In this document: one piece after another, positions 1-3,000 of the stretch
Numbering within the stretch: the first letter of the stretch is position 1
Layout of the letters: every line of letters starts with the position of its first letter
Virus record (IMG/VR): IMGVR_UViG_2671180631_000013
Strand: one strand, 5' to 3'
DNA length: 33,040 nt
Source: a virus
Lineage: Duplodnaviria; Heunggongvirae; Uroviricota; Caudoviricetes
Program-made: the position numbers

Positions 1-3000
1 ATGTTTTGCGAAGAAAAAGTAGCTCAAATGGCTGCATACCTACTTCTTAAGCGAGGTGGGCGCATGGCATATCTGAAATTGATGAAGCTGCTCTATCTGT
101 CTAACCGCAAGTCGATTTTGAAGCATGGCAGGATGATCGGCGAAGATAGCCTTTACTCTATGAAATTTGGTCCAGTCATGTCGAATACGCTGAACTTGAT
201 TCGTGGTAAGGCTGAAGGTATTGGTGACTACTGGTACAACCTGATAGAGACGAACGGGCATGATGTGTTGTTGCGTTCAGATCCGAGGGAAATGGATGCA
301 GACGAGGTCTTTGATGAGTTGAGCCGTGCAGATATCCGGATTTTAGATGAAATCTATTCTCTGTATGGGCATATGAACCGATTTGATCTCGCAAACATGA
401 CGCATTTAGAAAGCGTTTGTCCAGAGTGGCACAATCCTGGCAATTCTCGTAAGCCTATAGACCTGAAAGAAATGCTGATCAGTGAGGGTAAAAGCGAGGA
501 TGAGGCTAATCGTATAATTGGCAAAATGGAAGAATCTCAGAAACTTAAGGAATTTTCTTTGCAATTATCATGACGGATTATCAGCCATACAGGAAAGGAA
601 CTGTGCTTGCCCCAACTGGGCCATGCAATCATCTTCATGTGATTTGTAATGATCCTGTTTATTACCCCGTTAACGATTGTTATTGTGTTTTAGTTGTTAA
701 TATTTCTAGTATCAAGGATGGTGTCCCCCACGATCCGTCTTGCGTCTTGAATTCTGGTGATCATCGCTTTATCAAGCATCCAAGTTATGTTGTTTACGCT
801 GAAGCTATAATTTGGCGAGTGGATAACATGGTTAGAAAGCAGCGATCGGGTGAGATTTCCGTTCATGATGATATGCCAGAAGCTACATTCAATAGAATTC
901 TGGACGGTTTTGATATATCTGATGAAGTTACGCCAAAGAACCTTAAATTTAAAAATAAATATTGCGTATCATCTATTGATGATGAGTAAACAACAGGAAT
1001 TGTTTCGGTATAGCTTCTGGAGTTTTCTATGGAAGATCAAAAAGCAACCAAGCCACAGGTTAAGTTCGACACAATGAAAGCATTCGCAGGTATGGGTGCT
1101 GCTGTTGAAGTTCTGATGAAGGCTGCTCCTAATGCGTTCACTCACGCTACTGTCTCTGGTAAAGAGCAGCAGGGTAAGCTTCGTCGTCGCAAAGCAGCAT
1201 GATCATAGCTGGTGCTTTTTGAAAACCCGCCTTTAGGCGGGTTTTTTCTTTAGTGATGTTCTTTGCCCTTCTGTTTGCCTGTTCTGACCTGTTCCCACTC
1301 GATACGTCCTTCTTCTCGTCTTTTGTCTATGTATTCCGCAAGATCCTGAATATTGATGCAACGTTTTGCTTTTTGTGATGTACCGATGCGATATGTAGGT
1401 ACAGGCAACTTACAAGCGTTTGCTTTTGCTTCTGCTGTGGCTGGACTCATACCAAAGTATTTTTGACTAACTGCTGAGAGTTCAATGTTTGGGGTATTGA
1501 ATTCAGCCATCAGTAAAAACAAGGTATTCATATCATTTCTCCATCATAACCGGCTGCACCCGGTGAGTTACTTATTCATTTCAATAATATTATTTTCTAT
1601 CATTGATTTATTTAAAACCAAAGAAGGAGCAAGATGGTTGTCTATTTTAAACAATGCATAACTTTTAAACTGTTGGTGATATCCGTAACTAATAAGGATG
1701 CTAGAAAAATCTCTTAATTCATCTTCTTTTAAAAAATTAAAATGAAATGGGTTGTCACCATTTATGAACAATGAAACATCTATTATGCAGTATTTCTCTC
1801 CGTTGTCATTTGCATAGAAAAAAATATAAGACATTCTGTTTGTTAAGACAATGCCATTAAATTTTCTTATGTCTGTAGCTATTTTGTTTTCCATGTTTGG
1901 TGCTACATATTTATTTTCAGAAATACATTTAATTTCATCTCCAGATGTCGTGATTATATAAAAATGAAACTTATCAGAAATATCTAACTTAACTACGCCA
2001 TCATTATTGTAAAGGCTGCTAAATTTTGGTGGTTCAACTTTTAAAGAATCATAGTTCTTTAAAAGAAGAGGGGAGTCAAATTTAATAACTTGTAGTATCC
2101 CTTTACCTTCAACCTCCATATTGATTGAAGATATAGCAATTGCATTATCTCTTTTATTATTCAGGATTATGGTTGATATATGCATGTCATATATTCTACT
2201 TGCATTTGCTGAATACGACACTGTCACCTTTTTTGATATTTTTTGCACGCCAAAATATATAGTGAAGGCAGCGGCAAGAATAGATAAGAATTTAATGTCA
2301 AATAAGGACCATAGCCACATTAGTTGCTCAATTGCTTCAGAGTTAATCATTTGCTTTACCATTATCGCTGTAATACAACACATGTGTGTATATATACGCA
2401 ATGCAATTATTTTGCAAGTGCTTCATTTACTATCAATAGCTACGTCACGTTATTGTTTAATGGTTCTTTATAGGGGCGGCAATAGTTAAAATTATCGCTT
2501 CCGTAAATGCCCCCGCAGGGGCATTTGCAGTAATGAAATCAGGCGGTGAAAGTACCAATAAAGGTTTCTACTTTGCTGTCTTTGAATTTCTCAACAAGCA
2601 GATCACGAAATTCGTTAGCCATTTCTTCCTGTACCGCTTCCAGCTGAATAATGCGCAGAACCAGTACAGGACGATCGCCAGTGATAATGCTGAGGCGTAA
2701 TTTAAACGGACGTTCTTTCAGACCTTCAAACGGAACGCATTTAAATTCAAATGCCACTGGCATAATGTCTTTGGTCTTCGCTTCGACAGACTCCATCAGG
2801 GAGCGTTTGCCGCTGAAGTCATTATCTTCAAAATCAGCGGTCTGGTTCGCTTCAATTGTGATTTTACGGATCGCCGCAGCCGCTTTGGTTGCCTGAATGG
2901 CGTCACCATTAGCATCAAAGCCCACAAGGTAGTCGGCCCAGTCTTCAATCCATTCTGCCAGTGACTTCTGGGAGTTACGCTCGCCATTAACAGACAACAG

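Follow-up and report, generated by a model that had tools for sequence, protein, structure and literature searches.

A probable PanA-PanT toxin-antitoxin pair as exchangeable cargo of a dusA-integrating lambdoid prophage of Escherichia coli

The panA-panT pair and its relatives

The virus record IMGVR_UViG_2671180631_000013 of IMG/VR is a stretch of 33,040 nucleotides from the Caudoviricetes, and we refer to this whole stretch as the window. Three open reading frames (ORF1, ORF2, and ORF3) and an intrinsic terminator lie at its left end, all on the plus strand. We focused on the first two, which we call panA and panT, as a candidate pair of genes for a Panacea antitoxin (PanA) and its toxin (PanT). 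Base 1 of the window is the first letter of the ATG of panA (positions 1-573, plus strand), which encodes 190 amino acids. panT (570-989, plus strand) follows and encodes a putative toxin of 139 amino acids. ORF3 comes next (1029-1202, plus strand), and the terminator (1221-1246, plus strand) ends the rightward unit.

The product of panA is a standalone Panacea (DUF4065) protein of the antitoxin type. This had been proposed in the initial annotation of the window, and comparison with Pfam PF13274 (SocA_Panacea) bore it out: the match had an E value of 1.8e-18 and a score of 67.9 bits (cut-off of 25.7), with residues 27-137 of ORF1 aligned to positions 1-109 of the 113 in the profile. RefSeq names the protein 'Panacea domain-containing protein'. 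The GPV motif, which is critical for neutralization by Panacea proteins (Kurata et al. 2022, PNAS 119:e2102212119, PMC8832971), is present as G57-P58-V59, and a charged C-terminal extension of about 50 amino acids lies beyond the domain. The N-terminus (MFCEEKVAQ) resembles that of a Pseudomonas PanA (MIFSEQKVAQ), and homologs align from residue 1. By alignment, position 1 of the window is the true start of ORF1. The initial annotation had recommended extending the sequence upstream, and the extension revealed a Shine-Dalgarno sequence (GAGG) 7 nucleotides before the ATG, just beyond the edge of the window.

The two genes overlap by four nucleotides. The start codon of panT lies over the TGA stop codon of panA (ATGA, 570-573, plus strand), as the initial annotation had noted, and this overlap indicates that translation of the two genes is probably coupled. 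We looked at how well the pair is conserved in 30 fetched loci that extended far enough upstream of the toxin gene, from gamma-, beta-, and alphaproteobacteria and from temperate elements. In all 30, the gene directly preceding the toxin homolog, in the same orientation, encoded a PanA homolog. The ATGA (−4) overlap was retained in 14 of the 27 loci that could be scored, with gaps ranging from −4 to +62 nucleotides. The temperate carriers were of five kinds: lambdoid E. coli phages, Yersinia phage YeP1, the P2-like Pseudomonas phage Sirocco, Klebsiella phage phi12.5, and a Vibrio element of the Vinavirales. The identities of the PanA and PanT homologs to the query proteins co-varied (Spearman coefficient of 0.85). 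The partner PanA proteins were uniformly 184-191 amino acids long and had the motifs GPV, DELS, and TH..EW..P in common, with the last 30 residues variable; the GPV motif reached at least 80% conservation among 28 of them. The pair (bases 1-1000) was present in 208 of 5,426 complete E. coli genomes, or about 4%. The view that ORF1 and ORF2 make up a tightly coupled toxin-antitoxin-like module, one of the two roles suggested in the initial annotation, is supported.

The annotated start of panT in RefSeq is probably wrong. By alignment, ATG570 is the true start, because 44 homologs align over their full length, residues 1-11 included, and those residues are conserved across genera. The RefSeq protein (WP_014640052) begins at GTG603 and has 128 amino acids instead of 139, and this start is probably too short by 11 codons. 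Several RefSeq entries of the toxin family from Pseudomonas are likewise given as 108 rather than 132 amino acids and thereby lose the invariant His21. RefSeq/PGAP appears to shorten the PanT family systematically, and the conserved N-termini and the −4 and −1 overlaps favor the longer forms. For the roughly 4% of complete E. coli genomes that carry the pair, there is a practical gain in annotation: PanT appears there as a 'hypothetical protein', and its annotated gene probably lacks the first 11 codons.

The sequence libraries did not identify PanT, and its identity was resolved only by fold comparison together with a table in the literature. Pfam had nothing above the cut-off (there was a sub-threshold match to ICMT), NCBIfam gave only spurious aminotransferase matches far below the cut-off, and PHROGs placed the protein in a family of unknown function. 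An AlphaFold2 model built on the alignment of homologs had a predicted local distance difference test score (pLDDT) of 93.1 and a predicted template modelling score (pTM) of 0.86. When this model was compared to the PDB with Foldseek, all of the top 50 matches were MazF-family toxins, and a library of viral structures returned PemK-like proteins and endoribonucleases. The model is confident, and PanT is thus predicted to be a protein of the MazF/Kid/CcdB fold (an SH3-like barrel) to which C-terminal helices are added at residues 104-131, and not a new fold.

The PanT family is large and has no model in Pfam, NCBIfam, or PADLOC. A profile search of 1.84 billion representative sequences found 2,715 proteins at an E value of 0.001 or less and 932 at 1e-10 or less; the family thus has at least 2,715 representatives at the level of 50% identity. 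Over 100-126 divergent family members, the near-invariant residues were H21, L22, D55, C58, G63, H65, F67, S72, Y76, G113, and S117. The His/Asp/Cys/His set among them, together with S72 and Y76, could be a catalytic or metal-binding set that differs from canonical MazF. The pair also differs from MazEF and Kis-Kid (PemIK) in other ways. Its antitoxin is a Panacea protein and not a DNA-binding protein of the AbrB/MazE type; PanT has neither a Pfam PemK match nor significant profile similarity to these toxins; where the MazF type conserves Arg and Thr, PanT conserves His, Asp, Cys, and His; and the helices at the C-terminus are an addition.

PanT belongs, judging from its sequence relatives, to a toxin cluster that has already been catalogued and validated. 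Kurata et al. (PMC8832971) surveyed the gene neighborhoods of Panacea proteins and numbered the toxin clusters. Their cluster T6 (Dataset S1) has the HHpred label 'EndoA/PemK/MazF-family RNases', the antitoxin gene first, and overlaps of −1 or −4. Its entries include Pantoea septica LMG 5345, Yersiniaceae bacterium 2016Iso4, Proteus vulgaris, Pluralibacter gergoviae, Halomonas meridiana and stevensii, and Pseudomonas moraviensis BS3668, which has the validated pair (PMC8832971). In a pattern scan of species-representative genomes, PanT homologs came to light in two of these organisms: Pantoea septica LMG 5345, with 56% identity and a −4 overlap, and strain 2016-Iso4, with 55% identity and a start that could not be scored. 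Starting from the phage Sirocco homolog, a further search reached a cluster with a 132-amino acid protein of P. moraviensis (SDU72800.1; P0141) and the proteins of Halomonas meridiana and stevensii. PanT was 43% identical to the P. moraviensis protein over 120 residues (BLASTP, E value of 6e-34). On the antitoxin side, the PanA of phage Sirocco, a close relative of the P. moraviensis PanA, is 46% identical to ORF1 and starts with MIFSEQKVAQ, the ten residues that were restored to the P. moraviensis PanA by Kurata et al. (PMC8832971). We also considered cluster T1 and rejected it: none of the nine phage records matching PanT was Salmonella phage Emek, a T1 member, and the overlap in T1 is −20, compared to −4 here.

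The P. moraviensis pair has been characterized experimentally. Its PanT is toxic in E. coli and is rescued by its PanA (Table 1), the two proteins form a complex in pull-down experiments, neutralization is independent of ClpXP and Lon, and the toxin specifically inhibits incorporation of 35S-methionine (Kurata et al., PMC8832971). In the P. moraviensis pair (WP_083354365 and WP_083201923) and in the pair described here alike, the first gene encodes a standalone Panacea protein of about 185-190 amino acids with the same N-terminal motif, the second encodes a toxin of 132-139 amino acids with a MazF-like fold, and the genes overlap by 1-4 nucleotides. They differ in setting, as the Pseudomonas locus was scored 'NotPhage' and the pair here is in a dusA-integrating lambdoid prophage of E. 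coli, and two residues of the enterobacterial branch, C26 and G63, do not recur in the P. moraviensis toxin.

The initial annotation had raised the possibility that the 139-amino acid protein is a new toxin domain. Structure prediction and fold search of 570-989 returned the known MazF-type fold, the family is catalogued as T6, and there is the validated homolog at 43% identity; that lead is false and can be dropped. The pair is an ordinary member of the catalogued PanAT family, and the third small gene is unrelated to it.

The cargo slot and ORF3

The pair is located next to the attachment (att) junction of the prophage. Many E. coli chromosomes contain the first 1,300 bases of the window at 100% identity, and phages SKA5 and Lys8385Vzw match them at 98% identity. 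Inside a lambdoid prophage of E. coli AR_0085, the module comes first, approximately 250 base pairs (bp) from a duplicated 5' fragment of dusA. The order there is the dusA fragment (att junction), the module, and then xis and the leftward early genes; in the circular phage, the module is between int/attP and xis. In the window, xis (1250-1531, minus strand) encodes a PrtN-family excisionase and is convergent with the rightward unit; the statement in the initial annotation that the module is oriented against the leftward early genes was correct. The prophage has its own copy of the dusA 5' end beside att (positions 6640-6760 of locus L001, approximately 250-360 bp upstream of base 1 of the window). 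RefSeq labels this copy as a truncated tRNA-dihydrouridine synthase pseudogene, and such a copy is expected for elements that integrate in dusA.

The position next to att is an exchange point for cargo genes. In phage mEp460, E. coli O157:H7 strain 4276, and strain 2013C-4361, the frame of att, ORF3, terminator, and xis is present, and a 177-amino acid orphan gene is found in place of panA-panT. The orphan protein (WP_000956557) had no Pfam match. The int-gp23-gp24-xis region of mEp460 has the same arrangement as the region described here (a dusA-type att, a variable gene, ORF3 as gp24, the terminator, and a PrtN-family xis), and only the occupant of the slot differs. Enterotoxigenic E. coli H10407 has panA-panT and ORF3 with an additional CoiA-like gene. 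Homology between these elements breaks at about base 1015, immediately 5' of the Shine-Dalgarno sequence of ORF3. The prophage accessory position that the initial annotation had proposed is therefore a variable slot, bounded by the dusA att junction and ORF3, on the near side of xis. As accessory genes are exchanged at this slot, the att-proximal position in dusA-integrating lambdoid prophages is a good site in which to search for more defense or addiction cargo.

ORF3 is probably a real small gene. It starts 39 nucleotides downstream of panT and is preceded, at a distance of 7 nucleotides, by the Shine-Dalgarno sequence GGAG (with which the feature spans 1018-1202). Its product is a basic protein of 57 amino acids (net charge of about +6; phrog_2741), as the initial annotation had described. 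Family members were found only in prophages of the Enterobacteriaceae (Escherichia, Salmonella, Enterobacter, Cronobacter, Franconibacter, Atlantibacter, and Hafnia). The 20 full-length members that we aligned were all 57-58 amino acids, with a conserved core (KFDTMKAFAGMGAAVEVLMKAAPNAF) and variable ends, and the E. coli copies differed by few substitutions. The constant length and the core conserved across genera are the grounds on which ORF3 is probably coding. Its AlphaFold2 model was poor (pLDDT of 63), with one helix at residues 15-32; a central helix is conserved in the family.

ORF3 did not travel with panA-panT. Homologs of ORF3 were beside the pair in 2 of the 30 loci, both in E. coli prophages. 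The ORF3 region (bases 1016-1250) was present in 562 of the 5,426 complete E. coli genomes, compared to 208 for the pair. In mEp460, O157:H7 strain 4276, and strain 2013C-4361, ORF3 occurred without panA-panT and followed another cargo gene. The next annotated gene after the pair was unrelated and on the opposite strand in YeP1, phi12.5, and the Vibrio element, and was unrelated and on the same strand in Sirocco. The terminator (an 11-bp stem with 6 G-C pairs, a 4-nucleotide loop, and a T-run), described as strong in the initial annotation, was conserved together with ORF3 in mEp460-type prophages. From this distribution, ORF3 is a gene of the prophage backbone, not part of the toxin-antitoxin pair, and is probably co-transcribed with whatever fills the slot. 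The three-gene operon of the initial annotation is accurate with respect to the common orientation and shared terminator, but is not supported as one functional unit.

Interpretation and rival explanations

We believe that panA and panT (bases 1-989) make up a toxin-antitoxin pair of type II that is exchangeable, att-proximal cargo of a dusA-integrating lambdoid prophage of E. coli, and we put the probability of this at roughly 80%. The interpretation draws on the domains, the fold, the homology to a validated pair, the synteny, the coupling, and the cargo-slot context described above. The two genes would be transcribed rightward, presumably from a promoter in the region of approximately 250 bp between the att junction and panA, beyond the window, and their translation would be coupled through the ATGA overlap. 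By analogy to the P. moraviensis homolog, free PanT would arrest growth by shutting down protein synthesis, most likely by cleaving mRNA, tRNA, or rRNA, an RNase chemistry that the fold suggests. PanA, which has a Panacea domain as its only domain, would neutralize PanT by direct binding, without ClpXP or Lon, again by analogy to the homolog. ORF3 and the terminator would be backbone downstream of the cargo slot and would not be needed for the pair. If the pair is expressed in the lysogen, its biological role may be stabilization of the prophage or defense by abortive infection.

Several observations weigh against this interpretation. PanT shows no significant likeness to MazF or PemK in sequence. 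A search of the PDB with a profile of the PanT family found nothing meaningful, and alignment of the family with E. coli MazF and Kid using hhalign gave a non-significant probability of 0.2. In that alignment, H21-L22 of PanT was opposite H28-R29 of MazF, S46-S47 was opposite T52-T53, and VNISS was opposite VPCTT. The family has no conserved Arg, and it has H21, D55, C58, and H65 rather than the canonical Arg/Thr pair of MazF (R29 and T52), which is not evidently kept. The link to the validated pair depends in part on equating SDU72800.1 with WP_083201923.1, which we inferred from the organism, a strain-level BioSample tag, the length, and the −1 gap. Growth inhibition and rescue by PanA are known for this 43%-identical homolog, and the E. 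coli PanT would be toxic by analogy. For the Pseudomonas toxin, the effect that has been demonstrated is translation arrest, and 8 of the 25 PanT proteins tested were not toxic in E. coli, including one from an E. coli phage pair of cluster T1 (PMC8832971). Lastly, the sequence upstream of panA contained only a weak promoter match (TTGACC-17-TAAACT, 9 of 12 positions), on par with that in shuffled sequence; an inverted-repeat operator was looked for in the same region and none was found.

The function of the pair may be more specific than toxin-antitoxin. The pair could be a dedicated system for abortive infection or superinfection exclusion in which PanA senses a phage and releases PanT, and translation stops before the phage completes its cycle. 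In other systems, abortive infection does involve toxins of the MazF-like and ToxN kinds. The pair is in an att-proximal hot spot for cargo, near another orphan gene of low GC content (described below), and its carriers are temperate phages of very different kinds (lambdoid phages, P2-like Sirocco, YeP1, phi12.5, and the Vibrio element). However, ORF1, ORF2, ORF3, and the neighboring orphan had no match in PADLOC-DB 2.0 (E value of 0.1 or less), no outcome of a phage challenge was found in the literature for any PanAT, and there is no known trigger. We regard this dedicated defense function as a tentative possibility, one that is compatible with the PanA-PanT interpretation and not exclusive of it; an anti-phage role, the other suggestion in the initial annotation, is hypothetical here. 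A further version, in which PanT keeps the MazF barrel and acts by a different chemistry (metal-dependent or Cys/His-based) or on a different target, follows from the apparent replacement of the canonical Arg/Thr pair by the near-invariant His21, Asp55, Cys58, and His65. Combined with abortive-infection defense in which the Panacea domain senses phage, we think it unlikely.

Other explanations concern the mechanism or the composition of the system. PanT could be a gyrase poison like CcdB, or act by another mechanism that does not involve RNase, and not be an inhibitor of translation. CcdB shares the barrel, the closest structures to the model were all MazF-family toxins, and the P. moraviensis toxin acts on translation; we find this explanation quite improbable. 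The three genes might make up one tripartite system, with ORF3 as a regulator, chaperone, or third component. The spacing of ORF3, its orientation, and its own Shine-Dalgarno sequence fit this, as does the presence of a single terminator after all three genes with no terminator or promoter-like site between them, and Kurata et al. (PMC8832971) considered that some PanAT loci may include an 'accessory' gene as a third member. Yet the rarity of ORF3 beside the pair, its excess over the pair among E. coli genomes, its occurrence after other cargo, the breakpoint directly 5' of its Shine-Dalgarno sequence, and the unrelated genes adjoining the pairs of YeP1, phi12.5, the Vibrio element, and Sirocco all make a tripartite system very improbable. 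The least probable explanation, one that we would give little chance, is a type VI system like SocAB of Caulobacter crescentus, in which PanA would be a ClpXP adaptor that drives degradation of the toxin instead of blocking it by binding. SocA is the founding Panacea protein, the shared Pfam family bears its name, and the two modes of neutralization are not necessarily exclusive (Kurata et al., PMC8832971). But ORF1 scored 13.5 bits against the NCBIfam SocA equivalog NF047745, far below the cut-off of 190, and PanT, with its predicted MazF fold, is unrelated to SocB. In addition, neutralization in the PanATs that were tested was independent of ClpXP and Lon, the validated relatives of this pair act by direct binding, and the two P. 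moraviensis proteins form a stable complex (PMC8832971).

Neighboring features

The base composition of the module is only modestly different from that of its surroundings. The initial annotation had pointed to a lower GC content, and the module was indeed at 0.422, compared to 0.496 for the window. ORF3, at 0.483, was ordinary, and the gene that deviates is a neighboring ORF of 277 amino acids, at 0.293.

A scan of the region with Rfam gave only sub-threshold matches, between 1150 and 1376 (rnk_pseudo at 32 bits against a threshold of 55, and sroH, RNAI, P9, and others). Because all of these sit on the terminator hairpin, we read them as look-alikes of the hairpin and not as RNA genes.

The 277-amino acid ORF (1568-2401, minus strand) has a GC content of 0.29 against 0.50 for the window, and its product has an N-terminal hydrophobic helix. 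The protein is probably 260 amino acids long, starting from Met18. Its sole match was phrog_14996, of unknown function, with none in Pfam, NCBIfam, or PADLOC. Related prophages have genes for a 3'-5' exonuclease and a DUF551 protein at the place that this ORF occupies here. It was present in 99 of the 5,426 E. coli genomes and, like the pair, may have been acquired as cargo.

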